From NCBI GenBank assembly GCA_030877765.1, contig GCA_030877765.1_4853.1: a stretch of DNA of 46,671 bases; one strand, given 5' to 3'. Below, piece after piece: positions 23,122 to 36,701 of the stretch. Both the position numbers and the translations under genes were made by a program. Numbering within the stretch: position 1 is the stretch's first letter; each line of letters starts with the position of its first letter. Source of the DNA: a phage. The notes beneath the pieces are model-generated. The model ran no database searches. It worked only from the letters and a program-made list of their open reading frames with translations, and was not told where the DNA came from.

Positions 23122-23423
23122 TATTTAATCTCTCCGTTCAGTTCATTAACAATTAACGTTGCATAGCCAGCAATATCTTTCCAGCTGTCATCATAAGTCG
23201 GGTCGCCATTCAGAATGCGCCCAATCTTGTGCTGAATCATGTCGAGCGCCTCGCGTTGACTTGGTGTGAGATTGCGCCAGCCATCTACCTTGCGCATCAC
23301 ATCTTTCAACTCCTGCATAATTTCAGCGCCGTCTTTGAATTTACCGTATCGACTACCGCGTTCGGTGATGAGTCGCTCTGTTGCGTCAGTATGGCGCTTA
23401 TCGCCCGTGATTTGTGAACTCAT
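23121..23423 (-). CDS. Hypothetical protein (100 aa)
   Basis: Operon-coupled ORF. Confidence 0.45.
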   Translation of the reverse strand: MSSQITGDKRHTDATERLITERGSRYGKFKDGAEIMQELKDVMRKVDGWRNLTPSQREALDMIQHKIGRILNGDPTYDDSWKDIAGYATLIVNELNGEIK

Positions 23424-23910
23424 TGTGATGCATTCTCCTGAATTCTTTTATTTTTGCTTCTGCTTCTCTTATGTCGGAAAAGTAACCAACTGTGAATCTT
23501 TTGCCATTTACTCCAACTCTTGCATGCCACTTGTTGTGCGATGAACTCCAGTTAACCCCCTTGATACCGCTAGTGTTGTTTTTGTTCATTGCTTTGTTGT
23601 GGCTATTCTCAAATTTGCTGGCCTCCCTTAAATTGCACGCCCTGTTGTCATTGCGAATGCCATTAATGTGGTCAATCATTTCACTTGCTGGCGCGCCATG
23701 AATGCATATCCATGCCAATCTGTGAGCAAGAAAAGCCCTACCGCAAAGAATTATTTGCACATATCCATCTGGCTTTAAGTAGCCAGCCACACTCCCTTTT
23801 TCTGCAATCCTATTCCTTGTCTTTAGCCATTTAAATTCCCCAGTTAGTGGATTGTAGTAAAGGTAACTCAATATAAACTCCCTACTCGGCTCATCTCTCC
23901 TATGCCTCAT
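23398..23910 (-). CDS. HNH-AP2 homing endonuclease (paralog 3 of 4)
   Basis: AHRLAWICIHGAPASEMIDHINGIRNDNRACNLR followed by NTSGIKGVNWSSSHNKWHARVGVNGKRFTVGYF. Confidence 0.85.
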   Translation of the reverse strand: MRHRRDEPSREFILSYLYYNPLTGEFKWLKTRNRIAEKGSVAGYLKPDGYVQIILCGRAFLAHRLAWICIHGAPASEMIDHINGIRNDNRACNLREASKFENSHNKAMNKNNTSGIKGVNWSSSHNKWHARVGVNGKRFTVGYFSDIREAEAKIKEFRRMHHNEFTNHGR

Positions 23911-24113
23911 TTCTCATCCTCTTTCATTGTCACCCTATTATTCTCGTCAACACTGAAGTTGGCCCGAATCAAATCATACATATCTTCCTTAGGCATATCA
24001 GCCAGCGCCACATAGCAACGGGCGAAGTAGCGAACATCACGGAGTGTCAGCGGTTGTCGCTTCTCCACAATGCTGGTGATAATGTCCATCGGCTCGCGTC
24101 GTGGTCTTGGCAT
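23907..24113 (-). CDS. Hypothetical protein (68 aa), first gene of leftward cassette B
   Basis: AAGGAG RBS; ATGA overlap with the HNH gene. Confidence 0.5.
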   Translation of the reverse strand: MPRPRREPMDIITSIVEKRQPLTLRDVRYFARCYVALADMPKEDMYDLIRANFSVDENNRVTMKEDEK

Positions 24114-24140
24114 ATTTACTACTCCTTCTCGAAAAACATC

Positions 24141-24201
24141 TTGACGTTTCTACATCATTTAGTCAATACTTGTTGACGTAGATTGTACCACAACGGAAAA
24201 G
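24141..24201. promoter_or_regulatory. Divergent promoter region with two TTGACG boxes
   Basis: TTGACG at 24141 and 24173, the second as TGTTGACGTAGATT; separates leftward cassette B from rightward genes. Confidence 0.4.
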
Positions 24202-24212
24202 GTGATGTGGAA

Positions 24213-24410
24213 ATGCGATACAAAGAAATAGCAGCGAGATACCAGAAGGAAGTTCGCGAGGTTATGGAAATCCTTAACGTTCGCGAGGATACCATTAAGT
24301 TTGTGGAAACCGCCATGTGTTCACTGGCGCTTGAAGCGGAGGTTGCGGGTCGTGAAAAGGCTGACGAACTTATATCTGCGGTGGTTTATAGTTCAACCAG
24401 TAACGGTTGA
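24213..24410 (+). CDS. Hypothetical protein (65 aa)
   Basis: ATG 24213 with a GGTGATG RBS region; track ORF starts at a TTG. Confidence 0.4.
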   Translation: MRYKEIAARYQKEVREVMEILNVREDTIKFVETAMCSLALEAEVAGREKADELISAVVYSSTSNG

Positions 24411-24470
24411 AGATGAAGGTTATCTGTGCGTTGAGCACGTTGTTATCAAATTCTACGGGAGAAATTATAA

Positions 24471-24665
24471 ATGGCGCATGACGAACTGTACGAAGAATCG
24501 TTAATCCAGAGGTTGAATGAAGTTGAGCGCACTCGCGAATGGCTGGAGTGCGAGTTACGAGAAGTGCGCAACCGCCTGCAACGCAAGCGCAGTCAGCAAA
24601 GAGATGTCATCGACTGGTCTGGGGGTACACCTAAATTTAACAATCTGGGAGAATGGTTGAAATGA
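24471..24665 (+). CDS. Hypothetical protein (64 aa)
   Basis: Track ORF in operon orientation. Confidence 0.4.
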   Translation: MAHDELYEESLIQRLNEVERTREWLECELREVRNRLQRKRSQQRDVIDWSGGTPKFNNLGEWLK

Positions 24666-25192
24666 GCAACATTAGTAAGGAAAGCATTTTAAAGTTCCTC
24701 CAGCATGATGAAAATACAGGAAACTTTCTATGGATTGATAATTTCTCAAGAAAATCAAAGAAAGGGAAGGTGGCTGGAGGTATTACATCGCATGGGTATT
24801 GGAGAATTCAACTCCCCATCGGGAGGTTTTACGCACACAGAATGGCGTGGATTGTTTGCAATGGAGATATACCAAACGGATATGAGATTGATCACATAAA
24901 TGGGAACAAGAAAGATAATCGCATCAGCAACCTAAGATTGGTCACAAGAGGTCAAAATGTTATGAATGTAGGCGTGAAAAACAATAATACAAGCGGAGTT
25001 AAGGATGTTGTTTGGGACTCTTCGCGAGAAAGGTGGAGGGTTCAAATTACAGCCAATGGCAAGCATTATTATGGAGGTAGATTCTCGTCAATAACACAAG
25101 CAAAAGAGGAGAGGAACAGGCTCATAAAGATGGTTCACGGGAAATTTTTGAATACAAAAGGTGAGCAATATGACACTACTAATGAACGATGA
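24653..25192 (+). CDS. HNH-AP2 homing endonuclease (paralog 4 of 4)
   Basis: AHRMAWIVCNGDIPNGYEIDHINGNKKDNRISNLR followed by NTSGVKDVVWDSSRERWRVQITANGKHYYGGRF. Confidence 0.85.
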   Translation: MVEMSNISKESILKFLQHDENTGNFLWIDNFSRKSKKGKVAGGITSHGYWRIQLPIGRFYAHRMAWIVCNGDIPNGYEIDHINGNKKDNRISNLRLVTRGQNVMNVGVKNNNTSGVKDVVWDSSRERWRVQITANGKHYYGGRFSSITQAKEERNRLIKMVHGKFLNTKGEQYDTTNER

Positions 25193-25406
25193 GAAATTAC
25201 TTGAATGCCCGTTTTGTGGTTGTGATGACGTAAGTGTTATTGATGACGGCGAATGGTTGCACGTTGAGTGCGGAGATTGTTTTTGCCGCACTGACTCGTA
25301 TTGCTGCGCATCCACGGCAATGAAGAAATGGAACACAAGAGGTGGACACCTCTACACTTCCGACGACTTCAATCAGGCAGCAGAGGAGCGTGATTATGGA
25401 CTATAA
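25170..25406 (+). CDS. Lar-like restriction alleviation zinc-ribbon protein
   Basis: LLECPFCG...HVECGDCFC...AMKKWNTRG matches the Lar family CxxC..CxxC..WNTR pattern. Confidence 0.55.
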   Translation: MTLLMNDEKLLECPFCGCDDVSVIDDGEWLHVECGDCFCRTDSYCCASTAMKKWNTRGGHLYTSDDFNQAAEERDYGL

Positions 25407-25884
25407 ATCACAAATCATGCGCGTGATTATGAATCACCCCGGAGCAACGCGCGCATACATTGAGAAGCATTGCGGAGGTAAGCATTCAAGCACCACAACG
25501 CATCGCTTACATGAGATGCTTGCTCTTGGATTCATTCGTCGCGAGAAGTCAGTGATTCGCGGCGGCAAGTGGCAGTATAAATATTTCATCTCTGATGATG
25601 CAGCCGGTATTGATGATGCTATTAAGTGCCATTTGCTTGATAACGCTGGCGCGGAAGTGAAAGAAATCAGTACCACCAATGGCATTGATTATCGCATCGT
25701 GAAAAGCCGCATCCGCATTATGTTTCATAACGGTGATGTGACGCGAAGCTATGACCACCACAAGAAGCTGTGGCGTTATTCATGGAAGGAGAAGGAAGTC
25801 AATGTAAGCAATCTATTTAATTCACTTCTTCGCAGCGTAAGGGGTCAGCATGGGAAAAGCCAAACGCAAGAAGCAAGAGTATGA
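25396..25884 (+). CDS. Hypothetical protein with N-terminal winged-helix-like region
   Basis: IMRVIMNHPGATRAYIEKHCG...HRLHEMLALGFIRRE resembles a MarR-type wHTH. Confidence 0.45.
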   Translation: MDYKSQIMRVIMNHPGATRAYIEKHCGGKHSSTTTHRLHEMLALGFIRREKSVIRGGKWQYKYFISDDAAGIDDAIKCHLLDNAGAEVKEISTTNGIDYRIVKSRIRIMFHNGDVTRSYDHHKKLWRYSWKEKEVNVSNLFNSLLRSVRGQHGKSQTQEARV

Positions 25885-26026
25885 ACCTCTACCGCCATGC
25901 GAAATGTCAGGAATGCCGCAGCAGGAGGATGTGATTCTCACCGCGGCTGAGTGGCGCAAGGTGGCAAGAGTGCAAATCATGTTCCGCAAACTTGCTGAGG
26001 ATGTACTAAATGAAATGGGCTATTAA
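25850..26026 (+). CDS. Small basic protein (58 aa)
   Basis: ATG 25850; below track cutoff; overlaps neighbours. Confidence 0.3.
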   Translation: MGKAKRKKQEYEPLPPCEMSGMPQQEDVILTAAEWRKVARVQIMFRKLAEDVLNEMGY

Positions 26027-26363
26027 GCATAAATCCGGCAGAACTCTGTTTGTAACATCGGATGAGTTTATTGCCAATAACCGTAGAAAGATGGGCTGGA
26101 TAGTAGAGGAAGTGAAGATGACGAGTAGAGAGCAGTTTGAGCTCCAATGCAGAAATGGGTTGATCAATGGCGGATTAGCAGTGTTTGAAAATGGTGTTTA
26201 CGCTTCCGAATTAACAAGAGCTGTCTGGGCTGGATGGAAAGCATCGCGCGCAGCAATTGAAATTGAATTGCCAGAGGAAGAAAGTTTGGGATGCCACGCT
26301 ATTTACTATGCAGAAGATGTTATTGAGGCAATTGAACAATCAGGCTTAAAGGTGAAAAAATGA
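26010..26363 (+). CDS. Hypothetical protein (117 aa)
   Basis: Track ORF. Confidence 0.5.
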   Translation: MKWAIKHKSGRTLFVTSDEFIANNRRKMGWIVEEVKMTSREQFELQCRNGLINGGLAVFENGVYASELTRAVWAGWKASRAAIEIELPEEESLGCHAIYYAEDVIEAIEQSGLKVKK

Positions 26364-26686
26364 TTATCCAACTAAACGACATTATGAAAGCAGACATCAT
26401 TCAGCTTGAAGATTATGACGTGCAACTGGCGTTTGAAATCGAAACAGTTGAGCGTCAGCTGCAGTATGCTGATAAGAAGAATGATCGTGTCTGGCACGAG
26501 AAAGCACTTAAGGCGCGCGACCACATGAAACGCACGCGAGCGCTTATCAAAACGCGACTCGACAAGCTGTATTTTGGTGAAGAACGCATGTTGCATGGCG
26601 CGATACTGGCGCAAATCCGCAAGGAAATGCCAATTGGCAAGTTTATGTCATACGTTCACCGCGCAAAGCAGGAGGCCGGGTTATGA
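26360..26686 (+). CDS. Hypothetical protein (108 aa)
   Basis: ATGA-coupled to the upstream gene. Confidence 0.5.
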   Translation: MIIQLNDIMKADIIQLEDYDVQLAFEIETVERQLQYADKKNDRVWHEKALKARDHMKRTRALIKTRLDKLYFGEERMLHGAILAQIRKEMPIGKFMSYVHRAKQEAGL

Positions 26687-30179: not shown

Positions 30180-30205
30180 AAAAGGGGGTTTATCCCCCTT
30201 CTTTG
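30180..30205. terminator. Bidirectional terminator
   Basis: Stem aggggg/ccccct with T-runs on both strands; on the minus strand it overlaps the last codons of 30190-30996. Confidence 0.75.
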
Positions 30206-30996
30206 TATCTAATTTCACCGTAAACCATGTACTGTAACATGTAACAAAACTCCCATTCCGTCATATCTGTCCGTAGCCACTTCCTGTTCTTCTTGTAATT
30301 GTACTCCGCCAGCTCCGCTTTTAAATTGTGAAGAGCATTAACCAGTTCTGGATATACGAGGTTATTCTTAACAAACCAGTTGACAGATAAAATATGGTCA
30401 ATATGCCAATTATTGCGGTCATCAAAACTCATCCATGGAAGCATGGTTGATTTTATATGCTTAATGAAATCATCCTTTGAGTACCCGAGAACATCATCTA
30501 CTGTTCTATCAAGCGCAATGTCAGATACTCTCATATCAAGCCGCTCAAGCATTTTTCTTAGGAACACGTGGTGTGGGTGCTTCTTTTGCCATTGCCTGAC
30601 ATTATCCAGAGCCTTTTTATTGCCTTTCTCTGAGTAGTACCATCTGCGATAAGCTTCCCTTTTCTTTTGTAAAAACTCCTCCTTTTTCTCTGGATTCTCG
30701 TTAAGCCTTTGCATCTTCCTTTTGTTGTACTCCTGTTGTGATTGTTTTCTTTTCTTTTTGTACTCGCTGTTATCCTTGTTTTTCTGCCACTCCTTTTTTC
30801 TGTACTCACTTTCCTTGCGTTTGCGCTCCTCTGTTGTTCTCTGCTTCCTTGTTCTTTCGTATACGCAATGCTTGCATCCGCCTGATGCTGTAAAAAACAC
30901 AGTTCCACCACATACAGAGCATGGAATCCATTCACACACAAATTGCTTCAGTCCAGCAACCCTTGCTTCTTGCGCGGCTTCTTTTCTTGTTTTCAT
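30190..30996 (-). CDS. Zinc-ribbon, Lys/Glu-rich protein with C-terminal HNH-like motif
   Basis: N-terminal CEWIPCSVCGG...CKHC; long KRKE-rich middle; C-terminal NNWHIDHILSVNWF. Confidence 0.5.
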   Translation of the reverse strand: MKTRKEAAQEARVAGLKQFVCEWIPCSVCGGTVFFTASGGCKHCVYERTRKQRTTEERKRKESEYRKKEWQKNKDNSEYKKKRKQSQQEYNKRKMQRLNENPEKKEEFLQKKREAYRRWYYSEKGNKKALDNVRQWQKKHPHHVFLRKMLERLDMRVSDIALDRTVDDVLGYSKDDFIKHIKSTMLPWMSFDDRNNWHIDHILSVNWFVKNNLVYPELVNALHNLKAELAEYNYKKNRKWLRTDMTEWEFCYMLQYMVYGEIRYKEGG

Positions 30997-32709: not shown

Positions 32710-32882
32710 CACTTCACCTTAATCATGTGTTGTTTTGCAACCTTCAGGCATTCTTCAAAAATGCCACCATTCTTTGCGCTCTGATTGCGCTTGTAATACT
32801 GAATTGCCGCATCAATTGCCATCTGGTCGATTTCAGGCAGTTTTGCGCGCAGCTGTTTTTCGATGAATTGTTCGGCGTTCAT
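32709..32882 (-). CDS. Small protein (57 aa)
   Basis: ATG 32882; stop overlaps the clamp-fragment start (TGATG); below track cutoff. Confidence 0.3.
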   Translation of the reverse strand: MNAEQFIEKQLRAKLPEIDQMAIDAAIQYYKRNQSAKNGGIFEECLKVAKQHMIKVK

Positions 32883-32967
32883 TTTTCAACCTATTTGCAG
32901 TATGGGCACGTTGATTTCGTTCCGCTACCACCATGTCGTGGGCAACATATTTTCTCTATTGGTGTCA

Positions 32968-33777
32968 TCACATCTTCTCCAGAATTGCCATAACCTCGTG
33001 AATGTCAGCAACAGGAATCTGAATAAATTCCTCATCCTCTGCCACCACATGACCAGCAGGGAGAATTACATGGTCAGCTGGCTTCAGTAACTCAATCAGG
33101 CGGTCTACTGGCTTAATCTTTTTCGACTTCAGCACTTTGGCTGTGACCTTATCCTTGCCTTGCGCCTTCGCTTCTTCGACCGCTTCGTCGATAACTTTTA
33201 CCGCATCATCTCCATGTTCGCGCGTTACCGCTACGGCATTTGCATAGCTGATCTGTCCGGCACTGATTCGCGCTTTTACTTCCGCAGGCACATCACCCAA
33301 CGACAGGTGCATTTGCACGTCAGATACTGAGCGGCCTACCTTCTTGGCGATTTCCTCGTTTGTCCAGCCAAAACCTTTCAGACGCGTGTAAGCCTTTGCG
33401 CGTTCAAACGGGTCAAGTTGCTTGCCCTGACTTGATGACACCATGAATGCGATTTTGTCAGCCTCGTCGCCAGTAAAATCCTTACACTCAATGCGAACGA
33501 TTGGTGCGCCGCGCTCAATGGCTCGCAATGCGCCGAGGTAGCGATGCTGCCCATCAAGAATGCGGATACCTTTATCGTCAGGAATAACTGTTAATGCTGG
33601 CAATGGCTGACCTGACTCCCAGCACTGCGCGAAATATTCCACATGCTGCTCATCTGCTTCACGGATGTTGTATCCCGGCTCCAGATAGATTTGCTCTACT
33701 GGCACGAGGTAGGTTTTGTTAACAGCGATACCGTTACGCGTTTCTTTGTCTGAATAGATTTTGCTTAGTGTTTTCAT
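32968..33777 (-). CDS. ParB N-terminal domain (ParB/Srx-like) nuclease-type protein
   Basis: ILDGQHRYLGALRA motif; central HTH-like segment (EEIAKKVGRSVSDVQ). Confidence 0.7.
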   Translation of the reverse strand: MKTLSKIYSDKETRNGIAVNKTYLVPVEQIYLEPGYNIREADEQHVEYFAQCWESGQPLPALTVIPDDKGIRILDGQHRYLGALRAIERGAPIVRIECKDFTGDEADKIAFMVSSSQGKQLDPFERAKAYTRLKGFGWTNEEIAKKVGRSVSDVQMHLSLGDVPAEVKARISAGQISYANAVAVTREHGDDAVKVIDEAVEEAKAQGKDKVTAKVLKSKKIKPVDRLIELLKPADHVILPAGHVVAEDEEFIQIPVADIHEVMAILEKM

Positions 33778-34118
33778 TATTTCTTTCCTAATGCTTTATT
33801 GATAGATTCTTCAGCTAACAGCAATTCATCTGGGTATTGTTCATTCCAGTTTTGTTTGTATGCCTTGCTAAGCATTTTTTGCAGAGCTTCAAGCAACTCA
33901 GGTGCTGCTGCCATTAAATTAAAGTCATGCTCAACACTGCTATCAATCTCCCAATGCATCCCGTTGTATTTAGCACCCTTGCTAGAGAAGGCAATATTTC
34001 TGTCATCGTCGTGGTGACAGCCAGGTGTGTCATCAGTTCGACAAGACGGGTAAATAGCTGCGCAACCCCCGCGAATGTCTGCGACCCACGGCCCGGGCGT
34101 ACCTTTAAATTCTTTCAT
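33777..34118 (-). CDS. KEFKGT-motif protein, paralog B
   Basis: MKEFKGTPGPW...AAAPELLEALQ...INKALGKK; the RBS-start context GAGGTGATGAAAATGAAAGAATTTAAAGGTACG is shared with paralog A. Confidence 0.6.
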   Translation of the reverse strand: MKEFKGTPGPWVADIRGGCAAIYPSCRTDDTPGCHHDDDRNIAFSSKGAKYNGMHWEIDSSVEHDFNLMAAAPELLEALQKMLSKAYKQNWNEQYPDELLLAEESINKALGKK

Positions 34119-34159
34119 TTTCATCACCTCTAATATTTATTGTTGTTTCTACGTCACTA

Positions 34160-34205
34160 ACTATAAACGCACCACCAATCTACGTCAACAGGAATATGCT
34201 AAAAT
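34160..34205. promoter_or_regulatory. Divergent promoter pair (duplicate of 20932-20977)
   Basis: Minus strand TTGACG, 17 bp, TATAGT; plus strand extended -10 TGcTAAAAT. Confidence 0.6.
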
Positions 34206-34235
34206 CATGCTAATCAAACAACAGGAGATTTAAAC

Positions 34236-34355
34236 ATGGGTTCAACCAACTCACCATCTCGTTCGCGCGCTACTGGCAACACAAAAACTGGCGGCAAAAC
34301 TGGCGTGGTGAAGCCAAACGGCTCTACCCGTTCACCATCGCGCGGTAAAAAATAA
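34236..34355 (+). CDS. Small basic Ser/Gly/Arg/Lys-rich protein (39 aa)
   Basis: AGGAG RBS, ATG 34236; stop overlaps the next ATG. Confidence 0.35.
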   Translation: MGSTNSPSRSRATGNTKTGGKTGVVKPNGSTRSPSRGKK

Positions 34356-36624: not shown

Positions 36625-36701
36625 TGGTGGACACGGACGGATTTGAACCTTCAATCAGCCGATTATTAGTCGGTTGCTTTAACCAATTAAGCTACGCGTC
36701 C
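36625..36701 (-). tRNA. tRNA-like gene (77 nt including encoded CCA); apparent anticodon AAU
   Basis: Minus strand folds by eye: 7-bp acceptor stem with one G-U, D-arm GCTT/AAGC, anticodon stem-loop with loop CTAATAA, T-loop GGTTCAAATCC, discriminator A plus CCA. One mismatch each in anticodon and T stems. Confidence 0.55.

Follow-up and report, generated by a model that had tools for sequence, protein, structure and literature searches.

The phage contig GCA_030877765.1_4853.1 (GenBank assembly GCA_030877765.1), whose full 46,671 nucleotides (nt) are referred to below as the window, contains a small gene on the plus strand at positions 25170–25406, the product of which very probably belongs to the Lar ('restriction alleviation') family, judging by its sequence and its predicted fold. 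The gene has a three-part build, consisting of a constant N-terminal block with the first zinc knuckle, an exchangeable core, and a constant WNTR signature with an acidic tail. It encodes a single-domain acidic protein with a predicted four-cysteine (Cys4) zinc ribbon and is part of the rightward accessory operon of a presumed Skatevirus-like lytic siphophage, behind an HNH endonuclease gene and in front of a MarR-like gene. Taken as a whole, a Lar-family protein of this cassette build that binds a host protein and gives partial, allele-specific alleviation of type I restriction is an explanation that stands a little better than an even chance of being right.

Family and fold of the Lar-like protein

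The gene product, 78 amino acids (aa) long, is MTLLMNDEKLLECPFCGCDDVSVIDDGEWLHVECGDCFCRTDSYCCASTAMKKWNTRGGHLYTSDDFNQAAEERDYGL; both the list of open reading frames (ORFs) and the sequence itself place its ATG at 25170 and its TAA at 25404–25406. The initial annotation had described a small zinc-ribbon protein with the motifs CPFCG, ECGDC and WNTRG at this place, and the reading frame and the motifs are indeed located there: CPFCG at aa 13–17 (25206–25220), ECGDC at aa 33–37 (25266–25280) and WNTRG at aa 54–58 (25329–25343). A longer alternative start in the list of the ORF tool, GTG at 25161, falls within the Shine–Dalgarno sequence and is unlikely. The parts of the gene, delimited with the help of an alignment of the Lar protein with 21 relatives (alignment A1), are as follows; pI denotes the isoelectric point.

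25170..25406, plus strand: Lar-family gene, stop codon included; 78 aa, 8.8 kDa, pI 4.2
25159..25164, plus strand: Shine–Dalgarno sequence AGGTGA, 5 nt before the Lar ATG; from the 3′ end of the HNH cassette
25194..25220, plus strand: N-terminal block KLLECPFCG, aa 9–17, with the first zinc knuckle C13/C16 (A1)
25221..25328, plus strand: hypervariable core, aa 18–53, with a β-hairpin, the second zinc knuckle C34/C37 and a helix; a rare 'type 7' allele here
25329..25340, plus strand: signature WNTR, aa 54–57; W54, T56 and R57 invariant, N55 nearly so (A1)
25341..25403, plus strand: acidic C-terminal tail GGHLYTSDDFNQAAEERDYGL, aa 58–78; nearly invariant in A1 and outside the Pfam Lar domain

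Assignment to the Lar family, proposed in the initial annotation together with a hidden Markov model search as the means of checking it, has been borne out by several kinds of comparison. The protein scores 39.7 bits with Pfam PF14354 (Lar_restr_allev), for which the gathering score is 28.6 (expectation value, E, 6e-10), aa 8–57 corresponding to model positions 1–57/58, and it matches PHROG 599, 'Lar-like restriction alleviation protein', with E 1.6e-15. A BLASTP comparison with Lar/RalR of the Rac prophage (E. coli K-12 b1348, now ralR; 64 aa) gives an ungapped alignment of 53 aa with 32% identity and E 1e-10, in which C13, C16, C34 and C37 stand in register with C9, C12, C30 and C33 of the Rac protein, and WNTR (W54-N55-x-R57) with WNKR. 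The four cysteines and WNxR are invariant or nearly so in the 21 relatives of A1; L10, L11, C13, P14, F15 and C16 are invariant in the same alignment, while the synonymous sites of the N-terminal block vary. The lambda Ral family is absent from the Pfam scan at E ≤ 1, which returned Lar and a chance match to R2K_3 only. The DNA-mimic anti-restriction families Ocr and ArdA are unmatched in the Pfam and PHROG scans; despite its acidity, the protein is a zinc ribbon of 78 aa.

The AlphaFold2 (AF2) model has a mean predicted local distance difference test (pLDDT) score of 73, rising to 81–89 over residues 11–50, and contains a β-hairpin (residues 21–25 and 30–34) followed by a helix (47–55). In a Foldseek search of BFVD, matches 1, 3, 4, 7 and 10 are annotated as Lar family, with probability 1.0, template modelling (TM) scores of 0.5–0.6 and E from 1e-3 to 2e-2, values that are weak because the domain is tiny. 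The Foldseek matches of the model in the PDB are generic zinc ribbons only (eIF2-beta, TFIIB/Brf, Elf1), with no nuclease-like fold among them. A sequence search of the PDB yielded chance zinc-finger matches only (E ≥ 0.5), and no solved structure of a Lar-family protein was found.

The family is large: when 1.8 billion representative proteins were searched, 6447 representative clusters matched the Lar profile. In this family, the Lar domain very often occurs in 2–5 tandem copies without enzymatic fusion, which suggests that it works as a repeated binding module. Such tandem proteins (for example, P0029, P0033, P0038 and P0052) reach 431 aa and have no other recognisable domain; a domain-fusion search in the long members returned repeated Lar domains only and no informative partner.

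Since the Pfam match stops at aa 57, the tail lies beyond the domain. A tail helix (residues 64–72) is present in the AF2 model with low confidence. Of the 150 best representative clusters in the above search, only about six match the tail positions, and the 20-aa acidic tail appears to be specific to the Skatevirus-like phage group. Acidity is a property of the whole set of homologues, 67 of 67 being acidic or near-neutral (median pI 4.5, maximum 6.2), against a pI of 9.1 for RalR. Two Lar-like genes are listed for the Salmonella Skatevirus KFSST1; in the window, searched in all six frames by profile and by motif, there is only this one.

The region of the type 7 core (25221–25310) shows eight cysteines in total (CPFCGC … CGDCFC … YCC), four more than a zinc ribbon needs, and in several other core types the second knuckle likewise keeps the form CxxCxC. 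The extra cysteines of type 7 may form disulfides or bind a second metal.

Core alleles in one conserved slot

Altogether, 74 loci were gathered from viral contigs and full Lar ORFs were extracted from them; allele counts refer to 67 loci. In these 67 related phage loci, the Lar ORF is kept at the same slot, between a 64-aa gene and a MarR-like gene. When loci of the E. coli/Salmonella type are compared with the window, the 64-aa gene has 84–97% and the MarR-like gene 83–94% aa identity, whereas Lar has 47–64%, except in two loci. In Klebsiella-type loci, the flanks fall to about 50% and 35–38%, and Lar still retains 41–59%. The variation is concentrated in the middle of the protein: MMNDEgLLECPFCG and WNTRnGHLYTADDFNQAAEERDYGL are near-invariant, and the 35–45 variable residues between them comprise the hairpin, the second knuckle and the helix.

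Single linkage at 60% divides the cores of the 67 loci into about 20 types, and different types are only 29% identical in aa. The ratio of nonsynonymous to synonymous substitution rates (dN/dS) is 0.15 for cores within a type and 0.10 for the conserved blocks, and the gene, each core type included, is under purifying selection. In the conserved blocks, codons are identical for only 50–70% of the identical residues, so the conservation of the blocks reflects selection on the protein and not recent DNA exchange. Conservation merely through recent recombination or dual coding was likewise rejected, as synonymous sites vary and the downstream gene starts only at 25396, its match to phrog_1687 beginning from residue 1. 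A diversity-generating retroelement or fast positive selection was also rejected as the source of the core variation, given the difference of about 70% in aa between types and the low dN/dS within them.

Core types 1, 3 and 5 occur in both the E. coli/Salmonella-type and the Klebsiella-type lineages, and an island of 240 nt common to loci L029 and L046 is 89% identical (90–97% in the core) within a background of 30–55%; the core, or the entire small gene, therefore moves horizontally into the conserved slot. The type 7 core is rare: besides the window, it is found among the 67 loci only in Escherichia phage vB_Eco_ZCEC08 and in a C1-like phage. The tail variant, DDFNQAAEERDYGL or DDYKQDAMERANGL, tracks the lineage of the MarR-like gene and not the core type. 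Literature searches returned annotation tables only, and no description of the allele-cassette pattern or of the HNH insertion treated below was found in them.

Phage context and the HNH insertion

The window is covered over 92% of its length, at 96.7% identity, by phage vB_Eco_ZCEC08, and it also matches about 150 Salmonella, Escherichia, Shigella and Klebsiella siphophages of 45–48 kb; these similarities point to a Skatevirus-like lytic siphophage. Its nearest characterised relatives are phages Bas77–81, grouped in the Skatevirus cluster by the BASEL paper (PMC11990801). The Lar protein of ZCEC08 (WVQ01307) is 100% identical to that of the window and is labelled 'hypothetical'; many sister phages already annotate the slot as 'Lar-like restriction alleviation protein' (for example, Bas77_0030 of Escherichia phage ClaudiaMuster). 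Among 202 phage records, four have a Lar protein at least 80% identical to the one described here. The neighbours of the gene are listed below.

24471..24665, plus strand: upstream 64-aa gene, phrog_15697, function unassigned; its stop codon forms the ATGA junction
24653..25192, plus strand: candidate HNH(-AP2) homing-endonuclease gene; HNH_3 E 3.4e-20; phrog_99; AP2 weak (E 0.005), below the Pfam cut-off
25396..25884, plus strand: MarR-like winged-helix gene, 162 aa; phrog_1687 E 8e-57 from residue 1; weak MarR_2 match

All four genes, namely the 64-aa gene, HNH, Lar and the MarR-like gene, are on the plus strand, in agreement with the rightward accessory setting given in the initial annotation. 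So is the position of Lar directly after an HNH-AP2 gene: the HNH gene (24653–25192) and Lar overlap by 23 nt, the HNH_3 domain being firm and the AP2 domain weak. At its 3′ end, Lar overlaps the start of the MarR-like gene (25396) by 11 nt.

In relatives that lack the HNH gene, the Lar ATG overlaps the stop codon of the 64-aa gene (…TTGAAATGAGCGCACCACAT…) and the junction reads ...GAATGGTTGAAATGAGCGCACCACATATGCC... In the window, the HNH gene begins at the ATG that starts Lar in these relatives, and Lar restarts 517 nt downstream, with a new Shine–Dalgarno sequence and the N-terminus MTLLMNDEK instead of MSAPHMPMMNDEG. The junction GGTGAGCAA(T/C)ATGA is common to the window and the HNH-bearing Klebsiella-type locus L017. 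The mobile tract extends roughly from 24684 to 25203, taking in the first ~10 Lar codons; it is 85–95% identical in nt to that of L017, while the flanks are only 47–72% identical. This HNH gene stands in front of Lar in only three of the 67 loci, the cassette of the window recurring in ZCEC08 and L017 alone, and an HNH domain with sporadic, near-identical copies at one site in diverged genomes is the pattern of HNH-like homing genes. The HNH gene is thus a mobile insertion at the cassette junction, unrelated to Lar. It took over the original start of Lar, which now owes its ribosome-binding site and ~10 initial codons to the insert. A functional pair of HNH and Lar was considered and rejected, because the HNH gene is confined to those three loci and the type 7 core occurs in locus L004 without HNH in front.

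The ATGA stop/start junction (window 24660–24670; …GAATGGTTGAAATGAG…) is a common insertion point, seen also in L004, L017, L019 and L020. At this junction, relatives carry nothing, an ORF of about 222 nt (Bas77_0029-like), an insert of about 330 nt or the HNH gene, at the same ATG in each case. In loci L047 and L052 (3001–3650), another HNH gene, 35–36% identical to that of the window, is located right after Lar, the tail of which reads GGFVYSNSDYEDINDEVRS. As an HNH gene follows Lar there and another precedes it in the window, both ends of Lar are apparently landing sites for HNH genes. The window itself has a second HNH_3 and AP2 gene of 170 aa in the leftward accessory operon (23398–23910, minus strand; HNH_3 E 6.8e-11, AP2 E 9.7e-5, phrog_99 E 3e-64); it is a paralogue of the HNH gene before Lar and is present in ZCEC08 too. 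Directly after the capsid genes, a 267-aa ORF (30190–30996, minus strand) with an N-terminal CxxC…CxxC matches phrog_1035 'endonuclease VII' (E 6e-19) and may be another mobile nuclease. The single tRNA gene, for tRNA-Ile (36625–36701, minus strand; ARAGORN; Rfam tRNA 62 bits), has the anticodon AAT, which is unusual for a bacterial system.

As for other traits related to restriction, the window contains five EcoKI sites (AACN6GTGC), at 644, 4565, 6819, 13374 and 42968. Shuffled sequences give 7.2 ± 2.7, and avoidance of EcoKI sites by the phage was not seen; Bas77–80 have one EcoKI site each. The ParB-like gene (32712–32968, 99% identical to that of Bas77) and the RusA-like gene (33777–34355) are present in the window. 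A tblastn search of the window did not find the DNA methyltransferase that Bas77 encodes between its ParB-like and RusA-like genes, or the 86-aa acidic 'anti-restriction protein' encoded upstream of ParB, so the Lar gene is the only recognisable anti-restriction candidate of the window. The undepleted EcoKI sites and the lack of those two genes would leave the phage in need of protection, in keeping with an anti-restriction role of Lar. PADLOC defence-system models match neither the Lar gene nor five neighbours.

Candidate targets and known counterparts

The function attached to the family reportedly goes back to a single genetic study, that of King and Murray in 1995, on one distant homologue. 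The Lar protein of the window is acidic and has no nuclease fold, which makes it most likely that it would act by binding a host protein rather than DNA. The surface for contact with a polymorphic component of host defence, or for evasion of it, would be provided by the variable core, and the invariant N-terminal block and tail would carry the constant function. Passages in later papers relate, at second hand, that Lar reduces cutting of the EcoKI type (type IA) and speeds the methylation of unmodified DNA (PMC4041452, PMC6158711, PMC11482910). Because the type IA complex (EcoKI-like) is the only target linked to the family by experiment, partial, allele-specific alleviation of type I restriction is ranked first among the activities that the protein may have; as the specific target, type I restriction is a tentative choice by analogy, more apt to be wrong than right.

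A number of observations weigh against this reading. At the level of family models, the protein scores 34.2 bits with NCBIfam TIGR03655 (anti_R_Lar), below the cut-off of 39.6, and falls far short of the RalR equivalog NF007260 (27.5 bits against 113); since the Pfam and PHROG models were passed and these two were missed, the gene would be a Lar member in the Pfam sense and not an orthologue of RalR. The activity of the founder is contested between restriction alleviation and a DNase toxin, Guo et al. having reported that RalR is toxic, cleaves DNA non-specifically and is under the control of the small RNA RalA (PMC4041452). Four of the five phages Bas77–81 (Bas77, 79, 80 and 81) carry a gene annotated as Lar-like at the slot, and the five are described as 'markedly sensitive to RM systems' (restriction–modification; PMC11990801). 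According to the same paper, the efficiency of plating (EOP) on EcoKI is 0.02–0.2 for those of them with one EcoKI site and 0.6–1.8e-3 for Bas81, which has two, and the EOP of Bas77–81 on EcoCFT_I, with 2–3 sites, is 1e-4 to 1.5e-2; the plating had no knock-out control, and the allele type of the window is not shown in any of these phages. A Kagunavirus with two EcoKI sites, set alongside by site number only, has an EOP of 2–6e-4 (PMC11990801). Because Lar-carrying Bas phages are restricted by EcoKI, in dependence on site number, and by EcoCFT_I, any alleviation by the sister Lar proteins is probably weak, allele-specific or absent. In a PhageMaP study (preprint PMC11482910), the need for the Lar homologue of Bas63 (gene 32) was lower in DH10B than in three further hosts, of which two have no intact type I systems; by analogy, this points to a target other than type I. 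Promoter-like and terminator matches around the Lar gene are at the level of shuffled sequence and are silent on the timing of expression.

As regards the initial annotation, the family half of its Lar reading has therefore stood, while the half concerning alleviation of type I restriction and enhanced modification has not been supported: that label was transferred from a distant homologue of opposite charge, the models TIGR03655 and NF007260 were missed, and Bas77–81 are restricted.

The closest competitor is a counter-defence protein directed at something other than type I, for example, type IV restriction or another polymorphic immunity system, the alleles arising from matching of the target or escape from a sensor; we regard it as possible, with roughly one chance in several. 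The authors of the Bas63 study proposed a link to type IV restriction (PMC11482910), and the host dependence of the Bas63 homologue, like the restriction of the sister phages by EcoKI and EcoCFT_I, agrees with such a target. So do the ancient allele classes, which are kept and shuffled under purifying selection within each class and fit balancing or frequency-dependent selection. Neither a PADLOC match nor a domain fusion indicates a partner, however, and genetic evidence on the family exists for EcoKI alone.

The remaining alternatives find less room. A DNA-cleaving toxin like RalR, which would degrade or nick host DNA during takeover, could be expected from the homology to RalR and from the report that RalR is a non-specific DNase, toxic when overproduced (PMC4041452). 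It is improbable here in view of the equivalog score, the pI of 4.2 as opposed to 9.1, and a fold that is a ribbon of about 50 aa, like those of eIF2-beta, TFIIB and Elf1, with no nuclease-like match. Furthermore, both flanks are tightly packed coding sequence, and no Rfam family was matched at E ≤ 1 in 24000–26500, although the presence of a RalA model in Rfam is unconfirmed and a novel RNA is possible. An equally slight prospect is that Lar serves, through its conserved tail, as a regulatory partner of the downstream MarR-like protein and has nothing to do with host defence. The stop/start overlap, suggesting translational coupling, and the tail variants that track the MarR lineage speak for such a role, but tail and MarR type are physically linked, so that co-variation is expected even if the proteins do not interact; Lar and the MarR-like gene are held apart by an HNH gene in L047 and L052, where the tail is divergent, and the Lar domain is widespread without a MarR neighbour. 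The least credible alternative, with a very small chance of being true, is that the likeness is that of zinc ribbons in general and that the ORF does not function as a member of the Lar family. A zinc ribbon is short and carries little information, the PDB matches are generic and the NCBIfam cut-off was missed; yet the signature residues that are not ligands (P14, F15, G17, W54, N55 and R57) match as well, the Pfam threshold is exceeded, Rac Lar is matched directly, and purifying selection is strong over the 67 loci. The Pfam, Rac BLASTP, viral fold and dN/dS results largely refute it.

Partial, allele-specific alleviation of type I restriction can be extended into a more speculative proposal, which we put forward with reserve and would sooner bet against than for: Lar would be a modular 'specificity cassette' with at least ~20 ancient, individually conserved core alleles that recombination exchanges between the two phage lineages, each directed at its own variant of some polymorphic immunity component of the host, such as the type I HsdM/HsdS families, which it would neutralise or whose detection it would evade, and with the tail as a constant effector or anchor.

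Lar/RalR of the E. coli K-12 Rac prophage, the founder of PF14354/TIGR03655, resembles the protein described here in being a Cys4 ribbon encoded by a small phage-borne accessory gene. The conserved 20-aa acidic tail and the low pI are found here only, and the gene of the window belongs to a lytic phage and lies between a 64-aa gene and a MarR-like gene, whereas ralR is located downstream of recET. The Skatevirus-type Lar-like genes (Bas77_0030, ZCEC08 WVQ01307) share the orthologous slot, the N-terminal block and the tail, but most bear another core type (47–64% identity). The Ral protein of phage lambda has no sequence relation to the Lar gene and, to our knowledge, is not a zinc ribbon. As a functional analogue, it is small, phage-encoded and reported to relieve type IA restriction through faster de novo methylation (review PMC12707154), the activity also ascribed to Lar. 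Gene 32 of the lytic coliphage Bas63 likewise belongs to the Lar family, and its importance varies with the host; it is reported to be 90% homologous to Lar and is thus much closer to Rac Lar than the gene described here (PMC11482910). The HNH gene in front of Lar apparently resembles free-standing phage HNH homing endonucleases in its HNH_3 domain, patchy spread and undisrupted flanking genes; it differs from them in that the insertion rewrites about 10 codons and the ribosome-binding site of Lar.

A Lar gene is ordinary for a lytic enterobacterial phage, and automatic pipelines already label its orthologues in sister phages; relative to the known annotation, only the allele-cassette pattern and the HNH insertion are new. 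The HNH insertion is a clean case of a homing endonuclease reusing the translation start of its neighbour and rebuilding the 5′ end of that gene. Thousands of phage genes bear the name 'restriction alleviation', which rests on one disputed founder, and the plating of Lar-carrying Skateviruses shows no obvious protection from EcoKI. The allele pattern, with one slot and about 20 selected cores moving between lineages, offers an experimental handle on the true target of Lar. If the specificity-cassette proposal is true, Lar would be to the phage what the allelic specificity subunits are to the very systems that it fights, which would account for the small effect of single tested alleles on EcoKI.

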